Assembly (NCBI GenBank): GCA_030390025.1
Contig: CM059432.1
Coordinates: forward strand, 17,734,001 to 17,798,000
Origin: Squalus acanthias
Lineage: Eukaryota
Length of the DNA: 64,000 nt
Reading direction: 5' to 3'
The translations under genes and the position numbers were made by a program. Positions 4,031 through 56,801 of the stretch are shown piece after piece. How positions within the stretch are numbered: the stretch's first letter is position 1; the number at the start of each line of letters is the position of its first letter. The notes beneath the pieces were generated by a model, which made no database searches, was not told the DNA's origin, and saw only the letters and a program-made list of their open reading frames with translations.

Positions 4031-4129
4031 CTTAGACTGCCACGTTAAATCTCCTCCCTCCTCAATCAACGCCTGGATCATTTTCATGTTGCCGTGCCGA
4101 GCCGCGATATGCATGGCCGTCTCACCGTT
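4031..4129 (-). CDS. trpn1: TRPN1 exon (most 3' in window): [33 protein letters not shown]
   Basis: 99 nt; acceptor cggcag, donor AAG|gtaaag. Confidence 0.92.
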
Positions 4130-22100: not shown

Positions 22101-25100
22101 GCCCCAAAACTTGCTGAAATGTCCTTTTTTTTGGAGTCAGAAGGAGCAAGAGTGCTCTTGCCCTAGCCCTCCTCCCCACCCCCATCTCCCCCCAGACTTG
22201 CCTGTGGGCCTCGAAACTGGCTGAAATTAGTTAGGCCCCAACAGGTGAGCTGTGTCAGGGTGCCCGATTGGCACCTACAGCTTGCCTGAATGATGATGAT
22301 GAGGCCTGAGGACGTATTTAAGTCGGTCCTCGGACCTGTCCATCCTGGCGTGTCCTCACTGCGCACCGCCTGGTTTTGGGTGCTGTCCAATTTCTAGCCT
22401 AGTGAGTTTAAAACACACCCATCATAGAATCCAACTAATTAGTACAGAGCTTATGATGGATGGATGACGTTTTCTCATGTTCTTTGCTCACCTGTGAGCA
22501 TTAGTGAAGAAAAAAGGTCACAACAACAGTTCCCTCTATCACTACAGGAGTGCTCTCCCCTAAAAACAATTCCACAAATATTCAAATCTGAAAATTTTGA
22601 GGTCTCTTACCCCAATACACAAATGTCACAAGAAGCACCATTAAAACATTCATGCTGTGACCTAGAGCAGATCATGGATGAACCTAGCTACATTGAGTTC
22701 ATATGCCAATGATTTACCCTCAGTCCCAAAAGTGCATCTTAGTTAATAATCTAAAGGTATTATTCCAGCCCGATGTGCCAGCCAATGCTTCCTGCTATAT
22801 AAAAGAAGAAGAAATAGAGAACTTGCATTTATATAGCGCCTTTCATAACCTCAGGATGTCCTAAAGCGCTTTACAGGCAATTAAGTATTTTTGAAGTGTC
22901 ATCACTGTTGTAAGGTAGGGAAACGTTTATCGCTAGGCTGCTGCCAACAAGGGAACCACTGGACTACGCCAAAAACTGGCCTTTGCTATAGCCACGCATC
23001 CCTGGGCTTTTGTTTCTTTCAAGGTTCATTTGCGGCTCATCTATGTGTGTTTCCTTCCTGCTATTAAATTTGCCTCTAATTGTCAGGCCTCTTTATTCAC
23101 TTGCAAGCCAAACAAAAAAGAAGCAGAGCAATGTCAGACTGTTGGAATGCACTGATATCTGACCTCCGGCTAAGCATCAGAAGAGAAACAGATGGGACAG
23201 GTACGACTTGTCCTGGACACGTATTTCCGAGGACCTGGCTGGAGTTTTTTTTAAGAGCCTCGCACAACTTTGCCAGTTAGGCAGCTTGTGAACCTAAGGA
23301 GAACGCACGAGAACACACTCTGCTTAGCACAGGGATCCCTGCGAGATTGATTGCTGCCGATTAGTATTCCAGGTGGCTACCAGCTGGCATCACCCACACG
23401 GCAGGCTGCACGGCTCAGAACTGCTGAAGCTCAGAACCGACTGCAATGAGAGCTCAGGCGGAATCCAAGTCTGAGTTCTGAATTGAATTTTCTGGTAATC
23501 ATAATACTCATTAAAGTGGTTCTCGCCCTGGGACATTTTGTCAGCCAAGTTAAGCACGCCAAGCCAGGTTAGGGCATATTTATGGCACTGAGTCCCCGTG
23601 CTATGGAATCTGCTCTGTTTGTATTTAATTTGTTTTTTTTTTAAAAATGAACGACACTTCAATCTGCTCCTACTATTATGCAGTTTAATATAGTCAAAAT
23701 GCTTTATGACACACGATTAGAAATTTCTCTTTGCGGTATTAATGGACGAATGGTTAATGCATTTTGTATGACATTCCTCTGACTGCTATTTTAAACTGAA
23801 TATTAATCTGTTTGCTTTAAACTGGTTAACGCATCCAATAAAATCTCAGATAGAAGACGGTTTGCATGAATGTGTTAAGTGTTCATAATATTGGAAACAG
23901 CAGTTTCTAGGCTATAATTTCTTGAAACCTTCCAAAACTGGGAGCTTTTCGTTCTTATTCAAGTGAGGATCTGACCACAGATCCTACTAGTCAGAGAAAA
24001 AAAAGACTGTCAACCACTTCTGACCTAAACAACACTGCAGCTTGGTGCCGTGTGGTTTGTGCATTTACCTTCCGAATGGTGCAGCATGGCAAGCGACCAC
24101 AGTTCCTGCTCTCCGCACACAGGCTTTACCACTGTGTGGGGGGTTTCCTGTCAATCGGGGAAGGACATTGGGAACAGCCACCTCTTCCTGGTTTCATTCT
24201 ATAATTTAAGGCCTATTCACATCAGCCTCTAAACATTGCTCCAAGTATATAAATTTCCCTTTTTAAAAAAAAAATTGTGAGGCTGGATCATTGCCCTCAG
24301 AGGGGGGAACCGCAGTCATGCTTTCTGCACAGTTGGGGATATTTATTTATTTTTAAAAAGACAGCTTCTTCTGGGTTGAATACCTGTGTTCAGCTCCTGG
24401 CTGGCAGTGAATCTCCATATTTAAATAAACATTTACTACCACTCGGTGATAAACAGGTTAGATTGAAGACCCTGACTAGTTTCCAATAAAGGGAGAGGAC
24501 TTTTCTTTTCCAGAGTATTTTTTTCCCTTATTTATTGCCCCTGGGTTTTACTCTGTTTTTTTTTGTCTCTCCATGGTTACAAGGCTGTAGGGTGTTAGGA
24601 AGAGTCTATTCATGATGCTCCAGACATAGTGTGTATGGGGCTGGCTTGATGGTCTTTTCCTGCCTGTCATTTTCGTACGTGTCTTGTGCCAGACTCAGAA
24701 CAAATTAGGTCTCGTCCTTTTGTAAATTCTGCTTATTTAGTTACCATGGAAAAGTGTCAAGAGTTTGAAAGCTATGAATGAAGGAAATACCTTCGTTCGG
24801 GCAAGTACATTGGACTTGAATTTCTCAGTCAATACTTCGACCACATTGGTGTGCCCTCGTTCGGCAGCGATGTGTAATGGTGACCGGTCCAGCTGTAACA
24901 TAGGAAGAGACAACGTGGGTCCACATTAAATCACCACAAAATTCAATGTAATCCAATACTGTTGACCTCGTTTTTAGAGTTACTTATCCCTCTGTTTATA
25001 CTGGATGTGCTTATCGAAGCCTTGTATATTTTATGTTCCCCGCAATCCTCACCTCAATGTCTGCACGTAAGTAAAATTGTAGTTTCGCTCTAGGGGGGAG

Positions 25101-28100
25101 AAATTTGGTTGGTTAGCGCCTCCCGTTAGCGCGGGGGGGGGCGCTAAGGGATTAGCGACCGGGCGCGGCGAATGCAGCGACTCCCGCGAACGTCACAGTG
25201 CCGGTTTAGCGCTGGCGCCAACTCTTACCGCCTGGGCCTCTAGCGCCCCGCAGATTGTGACATCATAAAGTGCGCAGCACCCCGTTATCGCCCCAGATGT
25301 GAAATTGCCTCCCGCCCCCTGCTGTATCGCCGGGCATGAACAACGGCAGGAAGAGGAGGCGTTGTCAACTCGGCTGTCCGCTTGAGGAGCGCTAAATAAA
25401 GGGAATAGTTTTCAGGTAGAATCATAGAATGGTTACAGCACGGAAGAAGGCCATTCGGCCTGTCGAGCCCGTGCTGGCTCTCTGCAAGAGCACTTCAGCT
25501 AGTCCTACTCCCCCGCCCTTTCCCCGCAGCCCTGCGAATGTTTTTCTTCCAGGTACTTATCCAATTCCCTTTTGAAAGCCACGATTGAGTCTGCCTCCAC
25601 CACCCTTTCAGGCAATGCATTCCAGATCCTAACCACTCGCTGCGTAAAAAAGTTTTTCCTCATGTCGCCTTTGGTTCGTTTGCCAATCACCTTAAATCTG
25701 TGTCCTCTGGTTCACGACCCTTCTGCCAATGGCAACAGTTTCTCTCTATTTACTCTGTCCAGACCCCAACCGTTATTATTTGCACCAGTCTGGTGTCTGC
25801 TCAAAGTTTTTGATGTTTCATTGCTGCAAGATGTCCAAGCCCTCCACTTTGAGAGTGTGTTTGGGGCTGTAATGGCAGTTGTGCAGGTCGCCTTGCAACG
25901 CAGAATTGCTGACAAGTAGACTGTGCACCATCATTGGCCCTTCCACTGAAGCGAGGGAAGCAGCCTCTGATGCCGTTAGCAATGCGCTGCAAATTGTTCA
26001 GCGCTCTGCCGCTACCGCCCTGCTCTCGGACTTTAGCGCCCTACGAAAAGTGGTTAGCGCTTGATTTAGCGCTCTGCTTCCCTTTTGGAGCACTAAAGCT
26101 GAATTTTCTGGCAGGAGAGAATCATTAGCGCCTGGCGCTACTTTCTCTACTTTTCAAAAGTTTCTAGCCCTCGGTGTTCACAAAATCACAAGATAATTAC
26201 AGAGGAGGAAGGTCATTCGGCCCATCTTAACTCATCCATCCAGACAGATCCTAACATCACCCCACTGTAATCCAATTGTTTCTGAAATGGTTTTTGCCTC
26301 CGCTACTCTATCTCTGGAAGTTTACTTCACACATTCATGTAAAGAAGTATTTCCTAACATCAGTCCTAAAATTAGCTTTTACTTGTTTGAACCTGTGTCC
26401 CCTAGTTCCATTACTGCAGTTTGATTAAAGAACTATTCTGGATTACCTTTTCTGTACCTTTATCAATCTAGATACCACTTTATCACCCCTCAGACACCTT
26501 CCTTTCCAGGCTAAAAAGTTCAGGTTTCTCCAGCTTTTCCTCATAATTCAATAAATCTGATAATTTGTGGGCTAGAAAATGATCATGAAAGTTGCTGTAT
26601 TGTTAACAACAACAACGTGTATTTATACAGCGCCTTCAACATAGTAAAACATCCCGAGGTGCTTCACAGGAGCGTTAGAAAGCAAAATTTGATACCAAGC
26701 CACATAAGGAGATATTAGGGCAGATGAGTAGGTTTTAAGCAGCGTCTTAAAGGAGGAGAGAGAGGTAGAGAGGCGGAGAGGTTTAGGGAGGGAATTCCAG
26801 AGCTTAGGGCCTTCTGCAGCCAAAGGCACGGCCGCCAATGGCGTAGCGATTAAAATCGGAGATGCTCAAGAGGCCAGAATTTGAGGAGTGCAGATATCTC
26901 GGGGTGTTGTGCGGCTGGAGGAGATTACAGAGATAGAGAGGGGCGAGGCCATGGAGGGATTTGAAAACAAGGATGAGAATTTTAAAATCGAGGCGTTGCT
27001 TAACCGGTTGCCAATGTTGGTCAGTGAAGGGGTGAACGGGACTTGGTGCGAGTTAGGACACGGGCCTAAAAGTCATTAATGTCTTTCAACGAAAGGAGCC
27101 TGCTACCCCCTACCTACTCTGGCCTACATGTAACTCCAGTTCACTCTTAATGCTCTCATGAATGGGCCATAAATACTGGCTAATCAATGTCATTCACAAC
27201 CCAAGAACTTTTTATTTTACAGTAGAGACAACTTTTGAATTGGTCTTTTGCTTTTTTTTTGCTTTGTATTTTTGAGGCTCCTAGTTCCATTTATTTGGGA
27301 AATTTCACTAAATTATAATGTTAGGCTGCAATATGTTTTCCTAATGGTAATTATATATATATATAAAGAAAATAAAGACTTGCATTTATATCGCCTTTTA
27401 TGACGTCCCAAAGCGCTTCACAGCCAATTAAGTATTTTTTGAAGTGGAGTCACTGTTGCAATGTAGGAAATGCAGCAGCCAATTCGCACACAGCAAGTTC
27501 CCACAAACAACAATGTGATAATGATCAGATAATCTGTTTTAGTGATGTTGGTTGATGGATAAATATTGGCCAGGACACCGGGGAGAACTCCCCTGCTCTT
27601 CTTTGAATAGTGCTGTGGGATTTTATATGTCCCAAAGGGTAAACGGGGCCTTAGTTTAACGTCGCATCCAAAAGACAGCACCTCTGACAGTGCAGCACTT
27701 CCTCGCTCCTGCACTAGAGTGACAGCCTAGATTTTGTGCTCAAGTCTTTGGAGTGGGACCTGAACCCACAACCTTCTGACTCAGCCAAGAGTGCTCCAAC
27801 TGAGACACAGCTGAAACATAATAGATATCGAGAGAAGGAGGCCAGCTTTATAAGGAGATCCGACGCCTTGCATATACTCAGCCACCAGGGTATCTAGGTC
27901 TAGAAGATCTTATTTGAACATCTCCCTGGAGTTATGTGTAAGCAGGCTGACGATCAGCCCAGAGGTGCTCTATTCTAAAAGGAGATCTGCAAACTTCATC
28001 AAGAAACAGGACAATGCTTACATTGGCTCAGAAAGACATTACTGTGCTTAATTACTTACCCCACTGGCTCATTCCATTGGGTTACAGGTGACTTCAACTA

Positions 28101-31100
28101 GGTCAGTCAGTTTGCTGTCCATTTGAAACAAGGTTTTTTATAAGTCTTTTAAAAGTAGCTGCTGAGCCTTTAAATTGACTTGTTTTTTCTTTACCATCTA
28201 GCAATTCAGGATACCCGTTTTATAGAGGCATCATTTACATTTAGCTTTAATTAGGCAAACATGATGGAAAGGGGGACCTAATAAACCACAGTGCCACTAC
28301 TGTCTCATTTAAATACGCCCCTTTTAGGGAGGTCACTTCCAGCAGTGGGCAGAATTGACATCGTAATGTTGAGAAGACAATGAAGTGGAAGACGTTCTGG
28401 CATTATGGAACCCCGCCCCATTTCCATCCCTGCCCGCCTGAACATTGGACAGCAAACATAAATTCTTATTATTACCATTTTTAACTGATGTGTACTGAAT
28501 GCTAAAGGTACCTTGTCTGCAATGTTTGGGTTGGCTTTGTACTGGTAGAAGAACTTCAGCATGAACTCATCCCCTTCCCAGGCAGCAACATGTAAGGGAG
28601 TCTGGCCTTCGTCCTGCATTGAAGGAACAAGCAAAGGTTGAAGCAAAGTAACGTTGCAGCAAACTGCCAATTGTGCTACTGTTGGCTGTATTAGAAAGTT
28701 GTAATTTGTGCCATCTGATTTAAAGGAAAAATACAGTCCCAACAAAACGAGACCTCCATCTGGATGATGTTTGACTGGTGAAGCTCAAACAATGTTTGTT
28801 CTCTCTTTCTCTCCCCTTGAAATAAGAATCTACTTTAGCAGGTGTCAAAGCCAAAGCAAACCAATTTCCGCCACAGACCATGCAAAAGCTCGGCTTTGAC
28901 CAAACCCACCCAGTTTCCAGGCAAAACAGAGAAATTACTCTATGCCCCTGAAGGTAATCAAACAAAACTCCAGGAATCATTCCAACTTTATAACATATGT
29001 GATTTAACTTCCGATGTCACAGCATGCCACACACGGGGCTTGGTTTTAACTCCCGGACGGGAACACGTCTGGGAGTGGCAGCAGGCAGGCTCAGCTGATT
29101 TTATCATGTTTGCGTTCATTATCCTTACATTTATCCACTTCAACAATAGGTGCTTATTATTCCAGTCTCTCATGTACTGGGACCTGATCACATCACTTAT
29201 CTTCATCTACAAGTTTTATTATATTACAAGAAACACCCTCCTCCACATCACTTATGAACTGTGTGAACAGGGAACATAGATTTAACTTCTGTGAAACCCC
29301 ACAAGTCACTTCCCTAAGACAGCGCTCTTTGACTTTATCTTCTATCACTAAGCAAGTTCTCAATCCAGCTTGATTTATCCATTAAGTCGATGCACCTTAG
29401 CCATTAAAAACATCATGAGCAGAACTTTCTCAATTACCATAGCTACTAATTTAACTACTTTTTTGAAGTTACCATAGATTAGAGCAATATTTTATGAATT
29501 CCAATACTAATCTGATTGTATCTCACATTTCTCTGCAGTTTTTGAAGGCTGGTGCTTTGTATGCATTAAACGCATTTGCCATTTTTTCATCTTCCAAGTT
29601 TCTACATGACTTACCTCTGAAAGAAAATGTCTTTGCACTCCATTCACTCCCACAACTAACATTTGGATCCCTTTTGCTGCATCCTAGAATCTACCTTGCT
29701 ATTATTCTCTGACTCTCATTTTAGTTATCCTCAACTGACATCTGTACAACTCTCAGTCCTCACAACTCCTTTTATATTTTTAAATATTTCTGCTTTGCCT
29801 TTAAGTTAGTTGTGACCTCTTAATTAGTGGGCACGGTAGCATAGTGGTTATGTTACTGAACTAGTAATCCAGAATAATCCGGAGATGTGAGTTCAAATCC
29901 CACCACAGGCAGCTGGGGATTTTAAATTCTATTAATTAAAATTAAAATCTGGGATTAAAAGCTAGTATCAATAATGGTGACCATGAAGCTACCAGATTGT
30001 CGTAAAAACCCATCTGGTTCACTAATGTCCTTTAGGGAAGGAAATCTGCCGTCCTTACCCGGTCTGGCCTATATGTGACTCCAGACCCACAGCAATGTGG
30101 TTGACTCTTAACTGCCCTCTGCGGTTCAAGAAGGTGGCTCACCACCACCTTCTCAAGGGCAATTAGGGATGGGCAATAAATGCCAGTCTTGCCAGTGACG
30201 CCCACATCCCATGAACAAATAAAAAAAAACTCAGCCACTTGTTTTTAACCATCATTTTTCTTGTGTTGAAAGCTCACTTCTGTACAGGTCCCCATCCTCT
30301 GTGACTGAGCGGAGGACTACCCGAACTATGGAAGGAGGTATTGATGCTCAGACAGAAACCTGAACTGCCTACCTTCTGCCTCACAGCCAAGCTACCAAGA
30401 CACTTGAAGGACACCAGTAGGATGTCATAAAGATGTGGACACAAATTTTTATTATTAAAGAGGCACTACTTTGGCTCACGCAGAGGGATAGCTGGAATAG
30501 AGGACCCCACAGGAAGGATCAAACCTTCTCGCAAATAGTGGACAACCATCAACCGCCTCAGAATTGGTCATGGTAGATGTTGCCACCTTCTCTATAGATG
30601 GAAGATTAAAGCACACCATCATGCGACTGTGGAGCGCCTAATCAGACCCTGGAGCACATCATTGAGCACTGCCCTCAGAGGAAATTCACAGGCAGCCTAC
30701 AAGATACCCAGGCTGTTACACAGGAAGCTTTGGCCTGGATATCTGAGTTAGATATTGACATCTGATTTGCTTTGCTACTACCATACGACAGAAGAAGAAG
30801 CTGGAATAGTCAAGTGTTATATTCATTGCGTTCAGAAAAACAGCAATGTTTAGCCAGATAGAGAAATGTGTTTCAACCCTATTTGGGCAAATTGTTCCAA
30901 CATTTAGCAAACACAGAAAGAATCTTTGTCAACTAACAAAGATGGTGTCTGTTTACTGAACCATGTTAGTAGGGTGCTATCGATAATAAAATATATATCT
31001 TATGAAGAGGAAGATTACATTCATATATAGTTGCATCACCTGCAAGTTCCCCTCCAAGTCACACACCATCCTGACTTGGAAATATATCACCGTTCCTTCA

Positions 31101-34100
31101 TCGTCGCTGGGTCAAAATCCTGGAACTCCCTCCCTAACAGCACTGTGGGAGTACCTTCACCACACGGACTGCAGCGGTTCAAGAAGGCGGCTCACCACCA
31201 CCTTCTCGAGGGCAATTAGGGCTGGGCAATAAATGCTGGCCTCGCCAGCGACGCCCACATCCCAGGAACGAATAAAAAAAAGTTCCTTGTGTTAAAGCAG
31301 TCTTTGCTGTATTATGGAGCTAGAAATGAGGTCAAAGGAAGAAATAGTTTCCCATTTGGAAATTTCGGGAATTTCAATCTTTCAGCCTTGGTCATTTGGT
31401 TGTTGACTCTGCTAGTGAATAAGAAGGCATTTTCTCCTGCAATATACAGTATTCAGCTTTAGGCCTTCATCCTTACCAGCAGACAACAGTGTAACTTGTC
31501 ATTGTTGTTCTGTACTCACATTTTGAAAATCAACACCAGCACCAAACTCCACCATGAGTTTAGCCAGTTCCATATCTTTTTTTCTGCAGCAGACATGCAA
31601 GACTGTGTCACCATTATCCTGAAAAGTAAGTTGGGAGATTAGGTGCAGGTTATTTTCATTTAAAAGGCTCCAACATACACATAATATATGTTTAAAATTC
31701 ATTTCCCTGTAACTTCCACTGAAGTAAACACCCATGTAAGCCCAGTAGGAGCTGCATGGTACAGCAGTGCTGCAGAATGTGGTGCCGATGTCTGATATTT
31801 GAGTTGCTTGATAATACACCGGATGCCAAGGGTCCTACAGCTCTGTAACATGCAACATTGTATTAGAATATTATTGAAGTCAATGGAAATAATTATCGTG
31901 AGAGATGTAAAATGGGCTGCCGATTCGCAGTAACCCATTTTACACTGTCGCACAAAGTCAAAATCTACCCCATATTGTGTACAAGCCCAGCTCAGATCTG
32001 GTAGAAGTTGGACATCTTCGAACCTAACAAAAGGACAGCAATATGAATTTTTCTGCTTTTGTGGTTGTCATCAGGTGAAGAGTAGGACAAGTCACTGAAT
32101 ATATTTAAGAAGGCGATAGATAGATTTCTAGACACAAAAGGCATCAAGGGGTATGGGGAGAGAGCGGGAATATGGTATTGAGATAGAGGATCAGCCATGA
32201 TCATATTGAATGGCGGAGCAGGCTCGAAGGGCCGAATGGCCTACTCCTGCTCCTATGTTTCTAAGTGGCACAGGACTCCCAGGGGACGACCACATAAAAG
32301 GGATGGGCAATAAATGCTGGCCTTGCCAGCGATGCCCACATTCCATGAACGAATAAAAAAAAAGACAGAGGGTTTACTGATTATCATATTAGAATTGAAG
32401 GATGAGCAGTAGCCAACAAAGCTGAGGGTCTTTGGGATCACAATTGCTGAACTGCATTACATGTTAGAGGATGCACAGAAGGTGTCAAGAACTGCTTTGC
32501 CTGTGACTGGAAATCTTTTTGCCACTGTTTTAGAATCTCCTTAGTGGGTATTTAATACAAATGATCAGAGACGATGTCCACCTGCATTCAGAACTAACGT
32601 AGCTTTCCAGAAATGCCACATTAGTCCACAGAGGTGTAGGGCAACGTTTGAGGAGACAGCACCCATTCTATACCGGACTCCCCAAGGTGCCATCAACTGC
32701 ACACAGATGGGGAGAGGGCACCTCCAGTAAATCATACCGTCTATGTCAACTGCAACTGGTCTACACACAATGAAGGATTCCTTCATTCTTAGCCAGACAA
32801 ATCTGTCTCCAGTGTTCCAGCGAAGTGGTCAACTGCAAGGCAGGTTATTGGGGGGCTTGGGCTACAGTCTGAAAGCGTGGCTCAGAAACACATTGCTCAG
32901 AAAATGGTGGAACCACTCAGCAGGTAGCATAGTGGTTATGTTATTGGACTAGTAATCCAGAGGCCTGGACTAATGATCTGGAGCACATGAGTTCAAATCC
33001 CACCACAGCAGCTGGGGAATTTAAATTCAGTTAATAAAAAAAAAAATCTGGAATAAAAAGCTAGTATCAGTAATGGTGAACCATGAAACTGTCAGGTTGT
33101 TGTAAAAAAAAACATCTGGTTTACTAATGTCCTGCAGGGAAGGAAATCTGCCGACCTTAGCTGGAGTGGCCTATATGTGACTCCAGACCCACAGCAATGT
33201 GGTTGACTCTTAACTGTCCTCTGAAATGGCCTAGCAAGCCACTCAGTTAAGGGAAATTAGGGATGGGCAATAAATGCTGGCCTTGCCAGCGATGCCCACA
33301 TCCCGTGAATGAATAAAGGGAAAAAAAAAATCTATGGAGTGAAAAAGTGGGGGTGGGAAGGAAATAACAAAAGGGAAGGTCTGTGATAGGGTGGAGGGCA
33401 GGAGTGATGTTGAAAGGCTGTTTCCCTGGCTGGAGAGCCTAGACCTAGGGTTCATAGTCTCAGGATAAGGGCTCGCCCATTTAGGACTGAGATGAGGAGA
33501 AATTTCTTCACTCAGAGGGTTGTGAATCTTTGGAATTCTCTTCTTCAGAGGGCTGTAGCTGCTCAGTCATTGAGTGTATTCAAGACTGAGATAGGTTTTT
33601 GGGAATCAAGGGATATGGGGATAGGGCGGGAAAGTGGAGTTGAGGTAGAAGATCAGCCATGATCTTATTGAATGGAGGAGCAGGCTCGAGGGGTCATATG
33701 GCCCACTCCTGCTCCTATTTCTTATGTTCTTAAGATTAAATGACAAAAGAGACCTCCCCTTTTGTTCTTTTCCCTTGCCCTTTTCCCCTGGCTCTGTACT
33801 TGCTTATAAACTTCTTCCAGTTCTGGTGAAAGGTCATCGACCTGAAACGTTAACTCTGTTTCTCTCTCCTCGATGCTGCCTGACCTGCTGAGTGTTTCCA
33901 GCATTTTCTGTTTTTAATTTCAGATTTCCAGCAGCCGCAGTATTTTGCTTTAGTCAATCAAACAAACCATCAGTCTCCTCAATCAGCCTTGACAGCTCGA
34001 GAGGAGAATTTATAGCACAATCCAGCCAAAGTGTGCAAAATGATTGTGGTCTGCTGTGTGTTGCACAATCTCACCACCGAGATTCAATAAAGAATGCACC

Positions 34101-37100
34101 CAATCCATGACCATAGAGGATGGAGGATTCCAACTCACTGCACCAGACGGAAGATGAGTTTGCATTAGCAGGGGAGATTAGGGTCAAATGACTTCAGTTA
34201 GGGTAATCTGGTGGAACATCGCAGGGTACGTTTTTATCTTCAGCAGTCCCAGCACAGAACTTTGTGCACCAGGAACACACATTGAGAAGTCGGATGTGCT
34301 CGCCCATGACTTTCTTTCCCTTGTTGACAAGCCTTACTGTACAGAGCTCCAACAGTACTTGAACCAGGCCTTTGTTCACTTGTACCTTCCTTTGTGCCCT
34401 GAGCTGCAGATCGGCATTAACACTAAGCAGCTCCTTGCAGACTGCGATGTTACCGATTTCAACGCTTAGAAACAATGGGTTGCAGCCGTCCTGTGGAAAG
34501 AAAGAAAGAAATTGAGACCTAGGAAAGAAAGAATGTAGGAAGAAAGACTTGCATTTATATAGCGCCTTTCACAACGTCAAGATGTCCCAAAGCGCTTTAC
34601 AGCCAATGAAGTACTTTTGAACTGTAGTCACTGTTGTAATGTGGGAAACACAGCAATCAATTGATAATGACCAGATAATCTGTTTTTTTTAGTGATGTTG
34701 ATTGAGGGATAAATATTAGCCAGGACAGTGGGGAGTACACCCTTGCTCTTTTTCGAATAGTGCCATGGGATCTTTTACGTCCATCTGAGAGAGCAGACGG
34801 GGCCTCAGTTTAACGTCACATCCAAAAGATGACACCTCCGACAGTGCAGCACTCCCTCAGCACTGCACTGGAGTGTCAGCCTTGAGTTTGTGCTCAAGTC
34901 CCTGGAGTGGGCCTTGAACCCACAACCTCTGAGGCGAGAGTGCTACCAACTGAGCCACAGCTGACAGATAGATGTATGTAAGAAAGAAAGCATGAAAGGA
35001 AGAAAGAAAGTTAAATACCACAGACTGTCTAATTAGTGTTTAAAAAGGTGACATTTAGGTATTATTTAGCAGTGACAATAAGGGTGAAATACTTGTTGCT
35101 TATTAGAAATAAATTAATGTCTGTGTTGAAATTTCACCCCGAATGTGGATACTGTGGCTCAGTGGGTAGCACACTCGCCTCTGAGTCAGAAGGTTGTGGG
35201 TTCAAGGCCCACTCCAGGGACTTGAGCAGATAAAGCTAGGCTGACACTCCAGTGCAGTGCTGAGGGAGTGCTGCACTGTCAGAGGTGCCGTCTTTCAGAT
35301 GAGATGTTAAACCAGGTGGATGTAAAAGATCCCATGGCACTATTTCAAAGAAAAGCAGGGGAGTTATCCCCGGTGTCCTGGCCAATATTTCTCCCTCAAC
35401 CAACATAACAAAAACAGATTATCTGGTCATTTTCACATTACTGTTTGTGGGAGCTTGCTGTGCGCAAATTGGCTGCCGCTTTTCCCACAAGTACTTCATT
35501 GGCTGTAAAGCACTTGGAGACGTCCGGTGGTTGTGAAAGGCGCTATAGAAATGCAAGTCTTTCTTTCTTTTTTACTGTTATAACCCGACCAAGTGTTGCA
35601 ATCTTGTAAAACACCCGGCCTTTGGCGGTGATTACCAGGGACTGGTAACTTTATAACTGATAAAAGATCATAACATGTACATGAGAATTCGTGTTGCCAC
35701 TGCCTGGTTTTGGACTGGACAGTCTGTCTTTAAGCGAGATGTCTGGAGATTTTTTAATGTGTAAATTGGAGTTGATCTTCCGATCAGGGTTACAACTTGG
35801 CATTAGTTGGACGATGCACGACTCCTTCGTTCTGTTAATTGGCTGACTCCCCCCACCTGATTTTGAGGAGTCAGCTTCATTTACAAAGTTTGAGGCAAGC
35901 TCCTGGTCTACTTTGGGCCGAGCTTTGGGAGTTCGATCAGGGCAGGCTGTAGGAAAGCTCTTAAAATGTTGGCAGCAATTGCACAGGATGCTACTATTTT
36001 TAATGAAACATTCCAGTCTTTGCAAAGGCCCAGTGGATGGCACAATAAACATAGAGGCAGGAAACTGAGTACTTGTTTGTCTGTTAGATTGCTTATTACT
36101 AGCAACAGTATGCACAGGGTGAATTACGATTTCTGTCAGCTGCCTCTGCAAAGTACAGAAATAAACATCTTTCTAGTAAGTGAAAATCAATTAAGAGGCA
36201 TCTGAGTCAAACAAAGGGGAGATTAATATCTTAATGTCCATTGAATTATTACAGCAGCCATTCAATCTAAATGGCAGTATCTTGTGTATCTTTCGAAAGC
36301 ACTGCTTGAATGTTAACAAGGGAACAGTGTGCTAATTTTTTGTTTTAACTCTGACATATCTTTACAAGATCTTAAAACAAGTCAGTTAAGGTATGTGGCA
36401 CAGATCAAAGAGCCAGGCCAACTCAGTCAGTGACTCTTTAATTGCCGACAGTGTCTGAAGTGAAGAAATGGGTCGAAGCCTGCGCGTGGGGAACAGGACC
36501 AATGAGTCTTTTGGCGGATAACTCTGTGACCGAGGGTTCCAATGATAGGTTTGTACCAGATTACCTGCACTTAGATCAGCAGTCTGCAGCCCGTGGCCAA
36601 CAGAGAAACTGGGCTCGTAGTTCAGATGTATGTTCAAAGATGGCTCAGAGAAGCATCTATTACATTGATATATCGAGGAGGATAGTAAAGTTTATAATTA
36701 CGAACATACGGAAAGGAAAAGGACAAGAAAAGACCAACTGGTCCATCCGGCCTATTTCATTCAGACAAGAGCCTTAAGCCAATTAGGATAAAAGTTCTGG
36801 GAAACTCATCTCTAACCTCTGAAGGAAATCTCCAGCATACTGCAGTAACTGATAACACTGATCACTGCTGGCTTCCCCTACCTTCTATAACTCAAGATGT
36901 CTACCACTCCCAGGAACATATGCTATTCTGTACTTAGTTCTGATTATTTACTTGTTTTATGTTAAGTAAATTGTCGATTGGTTTATAGCCTGATTCTTGA
37001 TATGATATTCGATTGCCGACTAAAGATGAGAATTACATGGCTGCAGGGTTATCTGTTCAAACTTTGGTTCTCAATATTACTAACCAAGGTAGTGGACGCG

Positions 37101-40100
37101 TGAAGGAACATTTTGGATCACAGAGGCTGGACCGTCCGCTTATGCGTCAGCCTTGGCTCAGTTGTAGGCTCTGTCTCCTCTGAGTCAGAAGGTTGTGGGT
37201 TCAAGTCTCACTCCAGAGACTTCGCACAACACCAGGTTATAGTCCAACAGTTTTATTTGAAATCACAAGCTTTCGGAGCTATCGATCGCCCCTTCCTCAG
37301 GTGAAGCATCATGTCCAGAGACTTGAGCACATAATCTAGGTTGACACTCCAGTGCAGTACTGAGGGAGTGCTGCACTGTCGGAGGTGCCGTCTTTCGGAT
37401 GAGATGTTAAACCGAGGCCCTGTCTGCCCTCTCAGGTGGACGTAAAAGATCCCATGGCACTATTCGAAGAAGATCAGGGGAGTTCTCCAGGTGTCCTGGC
37501 CAATACTTATCCCTCAACCAACATCAATTGGGCTGCTGCGTTTCCTACATTACAGCAGTGACTACATTTCAAAAGTATTCCATTGGCTGTAAAGTGCTTT
37601 GGGACTTGTCCTGAGGTTGTCAAAGGTGCTATATAAATGCAAGTCTTTCTTTTCTTCTTTCTTATAGGCGTTCTGGGTAATGCATAATCTGAGTAGAAAA
37701 TCGAGCATAAAATACTGAAATATAAACAGAAAATGCTGGAAATACTCAGCAGGTCAGGCAGCATCTGTGGAGAGAGGAACAGAGTTAACGTTTCAGGTCA
37801 GTGACCTTTCCTCAGAACTAGAAAAACACTGATGGGTTGCCAAGTGATGGAGCAACGCTCTGATCTTCTGTTTGATGGCCAGTGAAGTGGAGGTGGTGCA
37901 GAACGAGGCAGTTTCGAGGGAGTGGCCCTGCTTTCCACTCCAGAAGACCCATATCATAGGACAGCATTGCAGCATGCCTGGAGAGAGGCTGAGAAAGAAA
38001 GCTTTGAGGTCTTAGCTGGCTATTACTGCCACTGGCAATGCCAGCCTTACAGTGCAGACAAGCTGCAGGTGCCCTTACAGCAGAAGGCACACCACCTCTT
38101 CATCCAGCTGTCTACTGATGCACAATCTTTGGAGCCAGTTCTGCGAGGTCATTGCCAGGCAACTGCATCTCTGCTTGTAAATGCGGGTGGTAGGTACTGG
38201 CAGATGAGCAAAGTCTGTCTCTGGTACAGACTGATTTGCTTGGCATTGCTACTCTTCTTCTTTCAAAACAAAACATGACCAACTAAATGAAAACAGGAAA
38301 GAAGCAATGAAAATGGTTGCAGAAATAGCCTCCAGATTCTACCACTCATCTTATTATAGGGCATGTTCTAGGCACTTTGTAAACAGCACACCCCAGAACT
38401 TTTGGGCAGTCATTTTATAAAGTGTGTCGATGACTCAGCAGTATCTTCTTCTTCTTCTTCTTAGGCAGTCCCTCGGAACCAAGGATGACTTGCTTCCACA
38501 CTAAAAATGAGTTCTCAGGTCTACAGTGCAGTAGTCTACAGATGGTCTACAGAGCAGTAGTCTACAGATGGTCTACAGAGCAGTAGTGATACCCGCCCTC
38601 CTGTATGCTTCAGAGACCTGGACCATGTACAGTAGGCACCTCAAAGCTCTGGAGAGGTACCACCAACGCTGCCTCCGCAAGATCCTGCAAATACATTGGC
38701 AGGATAGGCGCACCAACGTCAGTGTTGTCACTCAGGCCAACATCCCCAGCATCGAAGCTTTGACCATGCTCGATCAGCTCCGATGGACGGGCCACATCGT
38801 CCGCATGCCCGATACGAGACTCAGCAGTATATCACTGCAAACAGTGGGCAACCATCAACCGCCTCGATGCCGCCACCTTCTCCACAGATGGAAGATTAAA
38901 GCATCCCCATCATGTGACTGTGGAGCTCCTGATCAGACCCTGGAGTTATCCCCGGTGTCCTGGCCAATATTTATCTCTCAACCAACATAACAAAAACAGA
39001 TTATCTGGTCAGTATCACATTGCTGTTTGTGCTGTGCGCAAATTGGCTGCCGTGTTTCCCACATTACAACAGTGACTCCACTTCAGAAATACTTCAATGG
39101 CTGTAAAGCGTTTTGAGACATCCAGTGGTCGTGAAAGGCGCTATATAAATGCAAGTCTTTCTTTCTCATTGAGCACTGCCCTCAGAGGAACTTCACAGGC
39201 AGCCTACAAGATATCCACGCTGTTACACCGGAACCATTGGCCTGGATATCTGAGTTAGATATTGACATCTGATTTGCTTTGCTACTACCATACGACAGAA
39301 GAAGATCACTGTAAGCGTGGGAATGTTGCATGCTTATCTGAGCCTGATTCTATGCTCTCTCAGTATCCAATTTCAGCAGGAGTCACTAGATGCCAACCTG
39401 GCAAAAATAAGTTTGCACTGTGAATAAATTTGCAACCTTTCTACTGGCTTGAAGACACACCACATTCAACCACCAATGCACTTGAAGACACACCACATTC
39501 AACCACTGATCTGCTTGTTACCTCTAGACTTGACTATTCCAATGCACTCTTGGCTGGCCTCCCACGCTCTACCCTACGTAAACTTGAGATCACCCAAAAC
39601 TTGGCAGTCCGTGTCCTAACTCGCACCAAGTCCCGTTCACCCATCACCCCTGTGCTCCCGGTTAAGCAACGTCTCAATTTCAAAATTCTCATCCTTGTTT
39701 TCAAATTCCTCCATGGCCTCGCCCCTCCCTATCTCTGTAATCTCCTCCAGCCCCACAACCCCATCCCCCCCACCCCGAGATATCTGCGCTCCTCCAATTC
39801 TGGCCTCTTGAGCATCCCTGATTATAATCGCTCCACCATTGGTAGCCGTGCCTTCAGTTGCCTGGGCCCTAAGCTCTGGAATTCCTTCCCTAAACCTCTC
39901 AGCCTCGCTACCTCTCTTTCCTCCTTTCAGATGCTTCTTAAAACCTACCTCTTTGACCAAGCTTTTCGCCATCTGCTCTAATTTCTGCTTATGTGGCTCA
40001 GTGTCAAATTTTTGTCTTATAACACTCCTGTGAAGCGCCTTGGGATGTTTTACTATGTTAAAGGCGCTGTATAAATGCAAGTTGTTGTTGTTGTTGGCTG

Positions 40101-42219
40101 ACCAATAGAACCAAAGGGTACTGGTACAGGGATTGTCATCAGCCTGGGAGAATGTTATCAGTGGGGACCCACAGGGGTCTGATTTGGGACCCCTTTTGTT
40201 TAATATTTTTATAAATGATCTAGAGCTAGGAGTCATAAGCGCAGTGGTTAAATGTGCAGATGATACAAAGCTAATGAAGGTGGTAGACAACATAGCTGAA
40301 CAGGATAAGCTACAGAAGGATTTGAATATACTTGGGAACTGGGCAGACTGGTGGCAGATGAAATTCAGTGTAGAGAAATAAAAAATGCTTCACACGGGGA
40401 CAGAAAATTCAGGAAGGGACTATTACTTAAATGAAAAGAAAATAATGTGCATGGGAAATGAAAGAGATCTAGGGTCTTAATTGACAATAAATTGAAGCTA
40501 TCGCAACAATCTCATTGGCAGTGATTATCCAAATCAGATGTTGAGATGTATTAAAAGGTCAATATTGAGCCGAAATAGTGAGCTCATCCTGCCACTTTAT
40601 AATTCATTGGTGCGACTGCATTTAGAATACTGTGCACAGTTCTGGTCACCAAAGTACAAAAAAGATATTGCAGGTATTGGAAGGATCCAGAAGAGAACAA
40701 CTAGAATGTACTGACGAAGGGTCATCGACCTGAAACGTTAACTCTGTTTCTCTCTCCACAGATGCTGCCTGACCTGCTGAGTATTTCCAGCATTTTCTGT
40801 TTTTAACCAGAATGATGTCTGGGTCTGTTGTAGACTAATTGATTGAGATTGATTGATATAATTAGTCAACAACTCCATATCGTTGTATCGTGCGACTACC
40901 AGCTTGGTAGATGGCGAACCAAATGGAGCTTGGGTCTTTCTTCGTTTTGCATGACACATCTCATTCAACCTCTGACCTATCAGAGGAATGAATAGGAGTA
41001 AAAGAGGAGTCAATGTTTTTGCTGGTTGTCAGTTATTGATCAGCAAGATTGAATGTGTTAGGTTATTCTCTCTGTCCCACTATTATACCCATCTAACATC
41101 AAAGAAATGAAACAGAACCAGAAAATCTCATTCATTAGCTGCTACTAAAAAAGAATTTCAAGCCCCAATTGCCCATCGAACGAGCAGGCCTTTCTTTGAG
41201 AAGGCCAACATCAACAGTTGTTCCCAGAGTGAGATTGGACTGATCATATAAAAACATCTGTGAGAAGTCGCACAACACCAAGTTATAGTCCAACAGCTTT
41301 ATTTGAAATCACAAGCTTTCGGAGCGCTGCTCCTTCGTCAGGTGAAGTGAAGAGATGCATATGGGCACAGCATAAATAGTCAGAGAACAATGCCAGATGA
41401 TTACAGTTAATCTTTCTAACTGCCCTTTATCACACCTCGGCAGAGAGATAATCACGGCAATCAAAGGTGTGGAGACACACGACAACGCAAAAATCGTCGA
41501 GCAGAAACTGATAGCCAAGTTCCGCACCCATGAGGACGGCCTCAACCGGGATCTTGAGTTCATGTCACGCTACATGTAACCCCACCTGACGTAGAGTCAT
41601 CCAGACTCGAGCCGTCGTTGGCTTGTTCTCTCTACACAGATGCGGCCGGACCTGCTGTGATTTCCAGCAAAATAAGTTTTTTGTTTTCCATACAGACCCC
41701 AGCATCTGCCACATTTGACCCCTTGTGACCCCACCTCATTGTCTTTGATGTAATGTTTTCCTGACTGACCTGTTTGGACACCATCCACACCTTTGATTGC
41801 CGTGATTATCTCTCTGCCGAGGTGTGATAAAGGGCAGTTAGAAAGATTAACTGTAATCATCTGGCAGTGTTCTCTGACTATATATGCTGTGCCTATATAC
41901 ATCTCTTCACTTCACCTGACGAAGGAGCAGCGCTCCGAAAGCTTGTGATTTCAAATAAAGCTGTTAGACTATAACCTGGTGTTGTGCGACTTCTCACATT
42001 TGTCCACCCCAGTCCAACACCGGCATCTCCACATCATATAAAAACATGGATAGGGCCAGTGTATTCAGCTACAGCCATTAATGATGAAGATTCTCTATTA
42101 CCTACCTTATCTTGTATGAATCGAGCATCTTTGTTTGAGGACTTCAGCAGCATCTGTACTATGTTGAGAGCACCGCTTGGTCGACTAGCTGCACAGTGTA
42201 GAGGCAACTGATCCTTATG
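4031..42219 (-). CDS. trpn1: TRPN1/NompC mechanosensitive TRP channel, partial gene span: 9 exons encoding 341 aa of the N-terminal ankyrin-repeat array; 5' and 3' exons lie outside the window
   Basis: Nine GT-AG phase-0 exons splice into one open frame. The peptide is colinear with recalled NompC/TRPN1 ankyrin repeats, e.g. EGQTPLHxAAx[29 protein letters not shown]......KKGVx[14 protein letters not shown]....P.VV.TLLGFGA.V...[16 protein letters not shown]. Confidence 0.93.
6190..6872 (+). repeat. Complex (GT)n micro/minisatellite with higher-order unit ~gtgtgtgcgtgagtgtgtgtgtgtatttattag
   Basis: Read directly; source of the spurious HT-rich ORF. Confidence 0.95.
7501..7602 (-). CDS. trpn1: TRPN1 exon: [34 protein letters not shown]
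   Basis: 102 nt; acceptor ctctacag, donor GAG|gtaaga. Confidence 0.93.
8710..9110 (+). mobile_element. tRNA-derived SINE family B (possibly Meta/MESC-domain type); other copies at 29829-30230 and 32920-33330
   Basis: tRNA-like A/B boxes, core ctggttcactaatgtcctttagggaaggaaatctgccgtccttacc, and a tail shared with the LINE at 59900-62040. Confidence 0.75.
9639..9839 (-). CDS. trpn1: TRPN1 exon (two ankyrin repeats): [67 protein letters not shown]
   Basis: 201 nt; acceptor ttcactag, donor AAG|gtaagg; overlaps ORF 9576-9830. Confidence 0.93.
10255..10405 (+). repeat. Three copies of a ~50-bp unit (caggactccggcaatgcgtggagagggatacttc)
   Basis: Read directly. Confidence 0.8.
10930..11330 (-). mobile_element. 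CR1 LINE 3' end
   Basis: ORF 11024-11365 ([34 protein letters not shown]) and (ttcttatg)n tail. Confidence 0.9.
12835..12933 (-). CDS. trpn1: TRPN1 exon: [33 protein letters not shown]
   Basis: 99 nt; acceptor ttatag, donor AAG|gtagaa; translated by hand. Confidence 0.93.
12985..14742 (-). mobile_element. DeuSINE-type SINE (12985-13252 and 14598-14742) split by a CR1 insertion (13253-14597)
   Basis: The SINE breaks at gtgccatgggat and resumes at ttttacatc..gacagtgcagcactccc; ORFs 13422-13991 and 14004-14585 are CR1 RT ([18 protein letters not shown]). Confidence 0.88.
15998..16706. mobile_element. PIF/Harbinger-type MITE
   Basis: TIRs gggctggatttt / aaaatccagccc; 3-bp TSD TTT (15995-97 and 16707-09); host CR1 resumes seamlessly. 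Confidence 0.85.
17227..20860 (-). mobile_element. Near full-length CR1 LINE (3.6 kb): ORF1 SGNH-esterase remnant plus ORF2 APE endonuclease and RT, frameshifted
   Basis: [30 protein letters not shown] (ORF1); [24 protein letters not shown] (APE); [19 protein letters not shown] (RT). Confidence 0.93.
21132..21812. mobile_element. Second copy of the same MITE family, opposite orientation
   Basis: TIRs gggctggatttt / aaaatccaaccc; internal blocks shared with 15998-16706. Confidence 0.82.
24791..24892 (-). CDS. trpn1: TRPN1 exon: [34 protein letters not shown]
   Basis: 102 nt; acceptor gttacag, donor AAG|gtattt; not in ORF track, translated by hand. Confidence 0.92.
25092..26170. mobile_element. 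GC/CpG-rich non-autonomous Harbinger-like element containing a CR1 3' fragment (25418-25765, minus)
   Basis: Ends ggggagaaattt / aagtttctagccc; repeated subterminal tagcgcc motifs; related to 44378-45121 and 49075-49218. Confidence 0.65.
26600..27065 (-). mobile_element. L2 LINE 3' end
   Basis: [29 protein letters not shown]2 tail ggcgctgtataaata and (ttg)n. Confidence 0.85.
27365..27815 (-). mobile_element. DeuSINE-type (SacSINE1-like) tRNA SINE
   Basis: tRNA head, Deu-like core gctgcactgtcagaggtgctgtc, L2-type tail. Confidence 0.8.
28512..28613 (-). CDS. trpn1: TRPN1 exon: [34 protein letters not shown]
   Basis: 102 nt; acceptor atgcag, donor AAG|gtacct. Confidence 0.92.
30290..30800 (+). 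mobile_element. Vingi/Ingi-type LINE 3' end; a second copy at 38840-39304 is split by a SINE fragment (~38946-39165)
   Basis: Encodes [64 protein letters not shown], then ccatacga and a (gaa)n tail. Confidence 0.7.
31033..31281 (+). mobile_element. 3' end of the LINE family seen at 59900-62040
   Basis: Near-identical to 61790-62040 ([33 protein letters not shown]). Confidence 0.85.
31520..31618 (-). CDS. trpn1: TRPN1 exon: [33 protein letters not shown]
   Basis: 99 nt; acceptor ttttcag, donor AAT|gtgagt. Confidence 0.92.
33410..33735 (+). mobile_element. CR1 3' end inserted among Penelope-like fragments (33330-33950)
   Basis: CR1 tail sequence; downstream aggtcatcgacctgaaacgttaactctg..gatgctgcctgacctgctgag is a PLE-type 3' UTR. 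Confidence 0.75.
34386..34490 (-). CDS. trpn1: TRPN1 exon: [35 protein letters not shown]
   Basis: 105 nt; acceptor ttccacag, donor AAG|gtacaa; ankyrin repeat. Confidence 0.9.
34540..34965 (-). mobile_element. DeuSINE-type SINE, full length
   Basis: tRNA head, Deu-like core and L2 tail. Confidence 0.85.
35150..35572 (+). mobile_element. DeuSINE-type SINE, full length
   Basis: gtggctcagtgggtagcacactcgcc..ggttcaagg head; aaaggcgctatagaaatgcaagtctttc tail. Confidence 0.85.
37145..37660 (+). mobile_element. DeuSINE-type SINE containing a 91-bp Penelope-like insert (37223-37313)
   Basis: Insert flanked by an 11-bp direct repeat TCCAGAGACTT (37212-22 and 37314-24). Confidence 0.85.
37263..37304 (-). 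ncRNA. Minimal hammerhead motif in the 91-bp PLE insert
   Basis: Minus strand TCAC-CTGAGGA-A-GGGGC..GCTCC-GAAA-GC-TT-GTGA. Confidence 0.62.
37784..37818 (-). ncRNA. Minimal hammerhead motif, second PLE family
   Basis: Minus strand GTT-CTGAGGA-A-AGGTC(ACT)GACCT-GAAA-CG-TT-AAC. Confidence 0.62.
38445..38817 (-). mobile_element. RTE LINE insertion with an inverted 5' segment
   Basis: (gaa)n tail and 3' end on minus (38445-38520); plus-strand RTE peptide [32 protein letters not shown]; 13-bp TSD GACTCAGCAGTAT. Confidence 0.85.
39505..40095 (+). mobile_element. L2 LINE 3' fragment
   Basis: ORF 39430-39981: [36 protein letters not shown]. Confidence 0.9.
40100..40850 (+). mobile_element. Older CR1 fragment containing a short Penelope-like insert (~40709-40808)
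   Basis: [28 protein letters not shown]; the insert is flanked by agaatg. Confidence 0.8.
40708..40742 (+). ncRNA. Minimal hammerhead motif, second PLE family
   Basis: GTA-CTGACGA-A-GGGTC(ATC)GACCT-GAAA-CG-TT-AAC. Confidence 0.6.
41309..41345 (-). ncRNA. Minimal type I hammerhead ribozyme motif (PLE), in TRPN1 pre-mRNA sense
   Basis: Reverse-complement copy of 41912-41948. Confidence 0.7.
41912..41948 (+). ncRNA. Minimal type I hammerhead ribozyme motif (PLE)
   Basis: TCAC-CTGACGA-A-GGAGC(AGC)GCTCC-GAAA-GC-TT-GTGA. Confidence 0.7.
42106..42219 (-). CDS. trpn1: TRPN1 exon (most 5' in window): [38 protein letters not shown]
   Basis: 114 nt; acceptor ttttcag, donor AAG|gtaggt; ankyrin repeat. 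Confidence 0.9.
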
Positions 42220-50633: not shown

Positions 50634-51131
50634 TTTCAAATAAAACTGTTGGACTATAACCTGGTGTTGTGCGACTTCTCATTTTTATAAAATAGAGGGA
50701 AGGGCACACAGTTGATTAGCTGGCTGTCCTTTCACCTCTAATGGGATCTATTCTGAATCCAATCCAGAATGAGGGAAGTCCTCTCTCTCGGCTGGCTGCA
50801 AGGGTCTTGTGTGAAATATGCAGCTTCAACCCATTTCCTCGTGGGCGTGAGCCCATAGCACAAAACTGCTCCTAATTTGGTACTAAATTAATGATGTCAT
50901 TCAAAGGCAATAATGGTGGCTTGTGTATTATATAGAAATAGGTGCGGTAAGGGTAAGGGTAAGTAGAGAGAGGTTTACTCTGCCGCCGCTTGTGCTAATC
51001 CTGACCGTGGAAATGTTCGTACCGCTTGGTGTTCTGGTGCTAGCATTAAAATTCCTCGCTTTGCTAAGCACAAAATTTTATCCCATCAACAAAAAGAAAG
51101 AAAAAAGGGAGATAAGAGGAATCCTGGCTGT

Positions 51132-51270
51132 ACACAATACCTTATATGGCAGTGATGTCTCATCTACGTCATAATCGGTGCCGAACACATCATGTCGCCA
51201 ATCCCTTACAAGGCAGTGAAAGCTCACAAAAATCTAACACATCATAATAGACGCCTCATATATTATAAGC
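51132..51270 (+). promoter_or_regulatory. Protamine Z1 promoter: CArG box CCTTATATGG (51140-51149), CRE half-site CGTCA (51167-51171), CArG-like CCTTACAAGG (51204-51213), TATA-like TATAAG (51264-51269)
   Basis: Motifs read directly; colinear with the Z2 promoter. Confidence 0.7.
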
Positions 51271-51350
51271 TGTGAAAGATATTAAAACATCAAAAAAAAG
51301 ACAAAATACTGGGATTCAAGAAGCAAAAGAAAGCTGAAAAGGACACAATA

Positions 51351-51506
51351 ATGCAGTGCGGTAAGCCAAAAAAGAAACCAGAAGCTTGTTTTTTACGAAG
51401 GCGGCACTTGCGACGCCTCCATATATGCAAAAGGGACAGATCTAAAACTTATCGAAGGAGACGCCACATTAGAAGATTGCCAAAAAGACGAAGAAGAAGA
51501 TGTTAA
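51351..51506 (+). CDS. Sperm protamine Z1-like (scylliorhinine Z1 type), 51 aa, intronless: [51 protein letters not shown]
   Basis: Translated by hand: 18 Arg, 7 Lys, 4 Cys. Closely resembles the recalled dogfish Z1 (..KPKKK...[39 protein letters not shown]). Upstream TATA; AATAAA at 51638 and 51654. Confidence 0.92.
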
Positions 51507-51637
51507 AAGTTGACTATGCCAGATTCATCCAGCCAACTAGTAACATTCTTAATGAATTTTGTGAAGAAAAATTCACTTCGTGAAGAGATCCTCTCTGAAA
51601 TCAATGCTGTCGCTGCTTTATATACTGCGGCAATTTG

Positions 51638-51659
51638 AATAAACTTCAAATCAAATAAA
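51638..51659 (+). terminator. Tandem poly(A) signals (AATAAA x2) of the protamine Z1-like gene
   Basis: AATAAA at 51638-51643 and 51654-51659, about 130 nt after the stop, followed by GT/T-rich sequence. Confidence 0.7.
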
Positions 51660-52719
51660 CATTGTGTACCTTGTTTTCAATTAAGTGTCCTGTTGATCCT
51701 CATTTACTGATCTATGATGTAACCATTTATAATCGCCTTTCTTGTAACTTTTTTACTCTTTTACTGTCTCTTTAATACTATGGGCTTCCTTGGGGCAATG
51801 CGGAGCCAATACAAAGTGGTCCACCAGATTCAGCTCCTGAGGTGGCAGATCTCAACTGGGACATCAAAATCAGTAGCTTCTGAATCGAGAATGGGGAAGA
51901 ATAGCCAAAGCTCCTGCTCCTGAATGCTATCCAATGACCTTCACTGGGAAAGTGCACTTGGGGGGATTTTAGAGCTCAGCTGCGACGCCACTGACATGTA
52001 ATGGTGCGCTGCTGTTCAATCCTGGCCTAAGTTGTCTGGCTCCGGTGGATCTGCAGAGGATGGGGCCAAGACCATGCTTTCAACCCCCCGCACCTTTGGC
52101 AGAAAATATATGTTCACCCACTCGTAAATGGGGAAACGCGGTCTCCAAGTTTTCCGTAATTAAGCCTAATCGAGCGCTGGGTGCAAGGACCCGCCTGCCC
52201 TGGGGGTTTAACAGAAGAGCCTGTGCAAATGGTCTCAGAGCGCAGCCGTACGCAGACCCCATCAACAAGGGGAATTTTATTTATGTTTGACTGGAATGAA
52301 AGCTACTCTTCTGACTCCGGCAGTCCTGTGTGCATTGACTGCAGCTGAGACCATTCAGTTCTGTAATGAATCCTATTGGGGTGAAATCACAACATGCAAT
52401 ATTTTATGTCTATATTAAATTCCTGAAGAAGTTATGTCGAGATACAAAGGAGCAACAGATACAAATGATCGTGTATCCGAAGCACATCCCCAGCATAGAC
52501 GCTATCATTCCTCTAAATGTTAAATCCGGTGACGTAAAGGATGAGCTCCCCACCACCCACCCAAAAAAAATGTTGTTCGTGTTAATTGGACCTTATTCTT
52601 GATACTTACATTTGGAGTTTGTCCAGATATACAAAGAGAAAAGAGAGGAAAACCCAACAAGTAGACTTCCAATATCGGGCTGCTGTGTCGCCGGCAGCAG
52701 TGCCTCGGGTAAATCTTAA

Positions 52720-56291: not shown

Positions 56292-56445
56292 CAACAATAC
56301 CTTATAAGGCAATGATACTCGCTCGCATCACAATCAACACTGAGCGCCTCATGTTTAATGTCAAATATGGACCTTACAAGGCCGTGGAAAACTGCAAAAT
56401 CACGGCGACATCACAGTAGGCCAGACCTATGAAAAAACTATAAAA
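56292..56445 (+). promoter_or_regulatory. Protamine Z2 promoter: CArG box CCTTATAAGG (56300-56309), CArG-like CCTTACAAGG (56372-56381), CRE-like CGACATCA (~56406), TATAAAA (56439-56445)
   Basis: Motifs read directly; colinear with the Z1 promoter. Confidence 0.72.
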
Positions 56446-56495
56446 CTGGAAATTGCAACATTTAGAAAAGAAAGTCAGTGGTTAAACTCTGAACC

Positions 56496-56639
56496 ATGAA
56501 GAGGTGTGGGCGCAAGCGCAGGCGCAGGCGCAGAAATGCGTGCAAGCCGAAGAAGCGGCCGTGCAAGCAAAGATCGAGTACTATTGTCAGAGCCCATCTT
56601 GTTCATCGCAGAAGAGCTGCAAGACGTTGCGCTCATTAA
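56496..56639 (+). CDS. Sperm protamine Z2-like (scylliorhinine Z2 type), 47 aa, intronless: MKRCGRKRRRRRRNACKPKKRPCKQRSSTIVRAHLVHRRRAARRCAH
   Basis: Translated by hand: 16 Arg, 6 Lys, 4 Cys. Closely resembles the recalled dogfish Z2 (MKCGRKRRRRRRHACKRKKRACKQRSSTIVRAHLVHRR..ARRCP). Kozak accATG, TATAAAA at 56439, AATAAA at 56796. Confidence 0.93.
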   Translation: MKRCGRKRRRRRRNACKPKKRPCKQRSSTIVRAHLVHRRRAARRCAH

Positions 56640-56795
56640 GAAGCTACAATAGACCAAAGAAGAAATAGTGAGAACCATGTTTGAGCTGAGCTAACGAGTG
56701 CTCTGAAAATGTGCACGAGGCCGACTTGTACTTGAAGGGAACTATATTTGAATGCAACTTCGCTACTTCACACCCATGTTCACTGATTCAAATTG

Positions 56796-56801
56796 AATAA
56801 A
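56796..56801 (+). terminator. Poly(A) signal of the protamine Z2-like gene
   Basis: AATAAA about 157 nt after the stop; context caaattgAATAAA resembles Z1 caatttgAATAAA. Confidence 0.7.

Follow-up and report, generated by a model that had tools for sequence, protein, structure and literature searches.

An intronless shark protamine Z1 gene paired with a second protamine-like ORF, probably within an intron of TRPN1

The Z1 coding sequence and its dogfish counterpart

The DNA analyzed is a stretch of 64,000 nucleotides from Squalus acanthias, referred to below as the window. The ORF at its center of interest lies on the forward strand, together with two sets of putative transcription signals:

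51264..51268, + strand: TATA-like box (TATAA) that precedes the Z1 ATG by 87 bases; its function is presumed
51351..51506, + strand: protamine Z1 ortholog, a single coding exon of 51 amino acids with four Cys, identified by a database match and a shuffle test
51638..51659, + strand: two AATAAA signals (51638 and 51654), with a G/T-rich stretch after them and no genomic poly(A) tract

The ORF described in an earlier note on this DNA was recovered: it runs from the ATG at 51351 to a TAA ending at 51506, and its translation gives the same 51 residues. The Cys residues are at positions 3, 13, 26 and 51, as that note had stated, and the several His that it mentioned are three in number (His19, His24 and His39). 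The protein contains 18 Arg and 7 Lys and has a calculated mass of about 6.65 kDa in its full-length, unmodified form, and its combined fraction of both residues (0.49) is the highest among the 633 ATG ORFs of at least 20 amino acids in the window. With its 51 amino acids it falls under the 70-amino-acid cut-off used to list the longer ORFs. An in-frame stop is located 26 codons before the ATG, with no ATG in between, and a scan of the bases preceding the ATG (51291-51350) found no GT dinucleotide; hence the ORF does not represent the terminal part of some longer exon.

The homolog search yielded a single candidate and a single match, scyliorhinine Z1 of the dogfish Scyliorhinus canicula (E 1.4e-14), in a cluster that contains P08433 / CAA29099.1 from that species. 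When compared with P08433, the ORF is identical at 40 of 51 positions (78%) over the full length, without gaps; being colinear with the entire dogfish protein, the coding sequence has no intron. As the ORF is short and of low complexity, and no Pfam family matches it, the similarity might be thought to reflect nothing but a common Arg/Lys composition of a chance ORF. Dogfish Z1 likewise has no Pfam match, and the local score between the two proteins is 221, compared to a mean of 45.7 and a maximum of 89 for 5000 shuffles of the same composition, none of which approaches the observed value. The shuffle test refutes an origin of the match by chance or composition, the probability of which we consider negligible. 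Of the residues other than Arg and Lys, 17 of 26 are identical. The Z1-like identity proposed in the earlier note is thus borne out both by the database match and by the shuffle test. The exact protein is absent from a collection of 15 billion proteins. The dogfish proteins have long been known, as database names and titles in reference lists attest; the gene present here is a further Z1 ortholog.

Both proteins share the length of 51 residues, Cys13, Cys26 and Cys51, His19 and His39, and all Arg runs, whereas they differ by 11 substitutions in total. Their basic content is similar (18 Arg, 7 Lys and 4 Cys here; 16 Arg, 8 Lys and 4 Cys in dogfish Z1). The first Cys, at position 3 here and at position 4 in the dogfish protein, is shifted by one and not lost. 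That the N-terminus is unlike that of dogfish Z1, as had been noticed, is correct, six of the 11 differences being at positions 2-4 and 10-12; no other part of the protein is as variable, and the change here is ordinary drift. In comparison with the dogfish sequence, the protein has an additional His (position 24) and one Glu (position 11), and both positions differ again in a close relative.

Conservation was assessed in that one relative, represented in two runs (X2 and X4) from one study which show identical differences and were therefore counted once. Contig X2 covers all 1501 bases compared, with 51 other letters, and is ~96% identical (about 3.4% away). Forty of the 48 changed places are displayed, and the remaining eight could hide a change in the coding sequence or in a motif. 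Among the displayed changes, six are located in the Z1 coding sequence, three of them synonymous (codons 3, 20 and 43) and three non-synonymous (codons 4, 11 and 24), and all six leave the Arg, Lys and Cys residues untouched. The 10 indels listed all fall outside the coding sequence, and neither a stop nor an indel disrupts the frame among the displayed differences. The three amino-acid changes all occur at positions that also differ from the dogfish protein (post hoc p 0.008). For the displayed changes in this single relative, a test for selection on the coding sequence did not reach significance (pN/pS 0.29, Fisher p 0.13); divergence in the coding sequence is not lower than in its flanks (6/156 vs 14/433 upstream).

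The frame, the start and the stop are kept, the TATA-like box and AATAAA are present, and the frame is also kept in the relative, so the gene looks intact, as had been described. This arrangement fits a one-exon gene that would give an mRNA of ~0.37 kb. None of the seven matching runs was listed as RNA; four of them were aligned, two of which were guessed to be RNA. The coding sequence is uncovered in both, and one of them contributes a single piece of 188 bases and depth 3, at 51612-51799, extending beyond the poly(A) signals; this speaks neither for nor against expression. A scan of the region from 49 to 59 kb gave no Rfam match. Short fragments of interspersed repeats, matched by many unrelated contigs, are found on both sides of the Z1 gene (~50820-50890 and ~51900-51955).

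A second protamine-like ORF and the two promoters

The window includes one more ORF of protamine-like composition, and each of the two ORFs is preceded by a promoter region:

51133..51303, + strand: proximal promoter of Z1, with homology to that of the second gene
51140..51154, + strand: box A, 211 bases before the Z1 ATG, with its first 10 bases a perfect CC(A/T)6GG
51204..51218, + strand: box B, 147 bases before the Z1 ATG, CArG-like with one mismatch
56293..56477, + strand: promoter of the second gene, with boxes at 56300 and 56372 and a TATAAAA at 56439, 57 bases upstream of the ORF
56496..56639, + strand: second protamine-like ORF, 47 amino acids with 16 Arg, 6 Lys, 4 Cys and 3 His
56796..56801, + strand: AATAAA of the second gene, read from the sequence

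The second ORF is located 5.1 kb downstream of Z1 on the same strand (5145 bases from start to start), and it is the sole other Cys-rich basic ORF of such make-up in the 64-kb window. From its size, its Arg run and its four Cys, it is a candidate counterpart of scylliorhinine Z2 (protamine Z2) from the dogfish S. canicula. It has no match in the protein libraries searched, where one candidate shared words with it and none reached E<=10. No further protamine gene, recognizable by a box or by a Cys-rich basic ORF, was found in the window. A promoter-like score near 63 kb was rejected, as it derives from an A/G-rich run in an apparent transposase remnant. Between the two genes, at 52734-53129, there is a G-rich tandem array of about 25 copies of a 16-base unit.

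The promoters of the two genes are homologous although their coding regions are not detectably related. Alignment of the promoters over 170-190 bases gives a local score of 35.5, compared to a maximum of 19.5 among 964 background segments of the window. Homology between the coding regions was detected neither in protein, where 1345 of 5000 shuffles reach the score, nor in DNA, where 332 of 1750 background segments do so. The far-upstream DNA of the two genes shows no similarity. At the 3' ends (51624-51668 and 56782-56846) there are short look-alike stretches around AATAAA, with a marginal score that 21 of 1140 background segments reach.

Each promoter contains the sequence CCTTAYAWGGC twice (51140 and 51204; 56300 and 56372). 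These four copies are the only ones in the 64 kb, with 0.15 expected and none of 100 shuffles reaching four; as the motif was derived from the same four copies, it is where they lie that carries weight. In both promoters the distal box matches CC(A/T)6GG perfectly; this sequence, which occurs six times in the window, we take to be the CArG consensus, a target of SRF-type factors. A full CRE (TGACGTCA) was not found between 50.7 and 51.8 kb, a region with one half site at 51167. The simplest reading of the homologous promoters would be an old tandem duplication, or an exchange of promoters, that may keep both genes in one spermatid programme.

The upstream sequence also bears on the origin of the Z1 ORF. 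Its lack of introns and the LINE fragments found around it are features that would also be seen in a processed retrocopy that derived from a Z1 mRNA and landed near TRPN1. Nevertheless, a retrocopy would not carry a promoter, and the 170 bp upstream of the ORF are homologous to the promoter of the neighboring gene; moreover, the AATAAA signals are followed by a G/T-rich element instead of a trailing poly(A) tract, which argues against a retrocopy. We regard such an origin as very improbable. It can also be considered that the ORF is an intact-looking silent duplicate, or a recent pseudogene, of a working copy located elsewhere, since the selection test is not significant and the search for further copies covered the 64-kb window. 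The identity of 78% to dogfish Z1 over the full length speaks against this, and so does the finding that no listed change in the relative affects the reading frame with its start and stop codons, the two boxes, or the TATA and poly(A) signals, although this last argument is weak because few changes are expected. A silent copy appears improbable to us, and a working Z1 gene remains the preferred reading.

Position of the protamine genes relative to TRPN1

Exons of the TRPN1 gene are present on the opposite strand of the window:

4031..42219, - strand: TRPN1 (NompC) gene, the probable host, with nine colinear exons for residues 118-458
42106..42219, - strand: the TRPN1 exon of the window that lies furthest 5', starting from residue 118; an internal exon, having a pyrimidine tract and AG acceptor as well as a GT donor

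All nine exons are intact, and seven of them show 88.6-100% identity. One ankyrin exon shares 97% identity with TRPN1 of Heterodontus, and another matches residues 267-299 of NompC in 5VKQ. Both protamine genes are antisense to the exons for residues 118-458 and lie 5' of them. Neither tblastn using fragments of seven homologs nor a profile of 15 detected sequences for TRPN1 residues 1-117 in the window, while a control piece (residues 119-157) was recovered in the same search with E 1e-20. As the window lacks residues 1-117, the first TRPN1 exons are most likely located beyond its 64 kb, which would place the two protamine genes, in antisense orientation, in a TRPN1 intron. The protamine genes are therefore probably intronic, in an intron of >21.7 kb.

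An intron of this size would be larger than any of the eight observed, the longest of which measures about 12 kb, and the 42.2-kb exon is the first in one isoform predicted for a ray (P0059). Both points would agree with a head-to-head arrangement, in which the protamine genes are upstream of TRPN1 because the latter starts at the 42.2-kb exon or because its first exons were lost or moved. However, the 42.2-kb exon has a canonical acceptor, six of the seven mapped TRPN1 homologs extend 113-117 residues N-terminal of it, and the nine exons are present, intact and well conserved. We consider the head-to-head arrangement unlikely.

Z1 orthology, the intact frame, the TATA-like and poly(A) signals, the homology of the promoters and the TRPN1 exons on the opposite strand are the observations from which our account is built: the ORF is real and very probably represents a functional intronless gene for the shark keratinous protamine Z1, one of two tandem genes for Cys-containing protamines that have a promoter design in common and are probably located, in antisense orientation, within a large intron in the 5' part of TRPN1.

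With respect to the remainder of the window, 20 of its 93 longer ORFs were scanned against Pfam; three match LINE domains, and no other matches were obtained. Stretches at ~43.2-45.0 kb, ~53.4-55.4 kb and ~62.9-64.0 kb resemble decayed DNA transposons, presumably of the Harbinger type, and have no Pfam match in the ORFs scanned. The G+C peak at 44-45 kb may come from such a transposon and not from a gene promoter.

Proposed function and comparison with other protamine loci

From the features described, the following sequence of steps can be proposed. Transcription of Z1 in spermatids, after meiosis, would start ~25-30 bases past the TATA box and produce the mRNA of ~0.37 kb; both genes may be activated jointly through their paired boxes. 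The Arg and Lys runs of the protein would bind DNA and neutralize its phosphates, and disulfides among the four Cys, placed at both ends and in the middle, would then lock the condensed chromatin, as in eutherian protamines.

The earlier note had suggested cross-linking both by disulfides and by zinc. In zinc-binding protamines of the eutherian P2 type, a conserved set of Cys and His binds the metal. Of the three His, His19 and His39 are common to dogfish Z1, while position 24 is Asn in both the dogfish and the close relative, which weakens the zinc idea; zinc binding by Z1 finds no support here and is putative. By analogy, cross-linking of Z1 through its Cys residues may fairly be supposed. 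One source describes that dogfish sperm chromatin disperses when exposed to a reagent that reduces and alkylates, together with detergent (PMC2110730), and others describe the roles of Arg and Cys in eutherian PRM1 (PMC8812575) and provide the eutherian protamines as a model for the steps proposed for Z1 (PMC8812575; PMC2112839).

The literature search returned no paper on this genomic locus by titles and abstract starts of the papers listed (in one case 40 of 2198), a weak piece of evidence because most subscription journals, the home of classic protamine work, are not covered. It likewise returned no paper treating TRPN1 together with protamine and, among the 12 papers listed for CArG with protamine, no title on a protamine promoter box, and with the terms protamine Z1/Z2 only irrelevant insulin papers. 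The word "protamine" is absent from the main text of the catshark genome paper (PMC11979771), the supplements of which may list the genes, and the part available of PMC3750513 adds nothing on the locus. The gene is of a known kind, a Z1 ortholog, and the layout of the cluster is a modest novelty.

Among 5.8 billion protein clusters, a single Z1 cluster (that of the dogfish) was found, although a word-based search can also miss sequences of biased composition; TRPN1 is represented there from several sharks, rays and a chimaera. The presence of one Z1 cluster despite several TRPN1 sequences from cartilaginous fishes suggests that annotations may drop such tiny genes. The TRPN1 address, together with the promoter signature, would allow these genes to be collected by synteny across cartilaginous fishes. 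With such a collection it could be tested whether the cysteine-rich protamines, and their clustering with transition proteins, had a single origin or separate ones in sharks and mammals.

We put forward, tentatively and with somewhat less than even confidence, that in sharks a single cluster of ~50 kb, located within or next to the 5' end of TRPN1, holds Z1, Z2 and the S1/S2 family of spermatid transition proteins, and that the two protamine genes are regulated together through a promoter that was duplicated and has CArG-like boxes in tandem. If this is true, the latter would be a cis-element without description for protamine genes in the literature searched.

In comparison with eutherian PRM1 and PRM2, Z1 is alike in its length of about 50 amino acids and in its Arg-rich core with Cys for disulfides, according to PMC8812575. 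The same source gives PRM1 an intron in its coding region, whereas the Z1 coding sequence has none. The Pfam protamine families, which represent amniote PRM1 and PRM2, match neither Z1 of this window nor dogfish Z1. No SOCS1-like sequence was found among the 20 scanned of the 93 longer ORFs of the window. The eutherian PRM-TNP2 genes are clustered beside SOCS1, as stated in PMC4869110, and the two genes of the window are likewise clustered, as a tandem pair; the neighboring gene is SOCS1 or TNP2 in mammals and, within the window, TRPN1 in this shark. If the cluster proposed for sharks is true, protamine and transition-protein genes would have been assembled there independently of the mammalian PRM-TNP2-SOCS1 locus.
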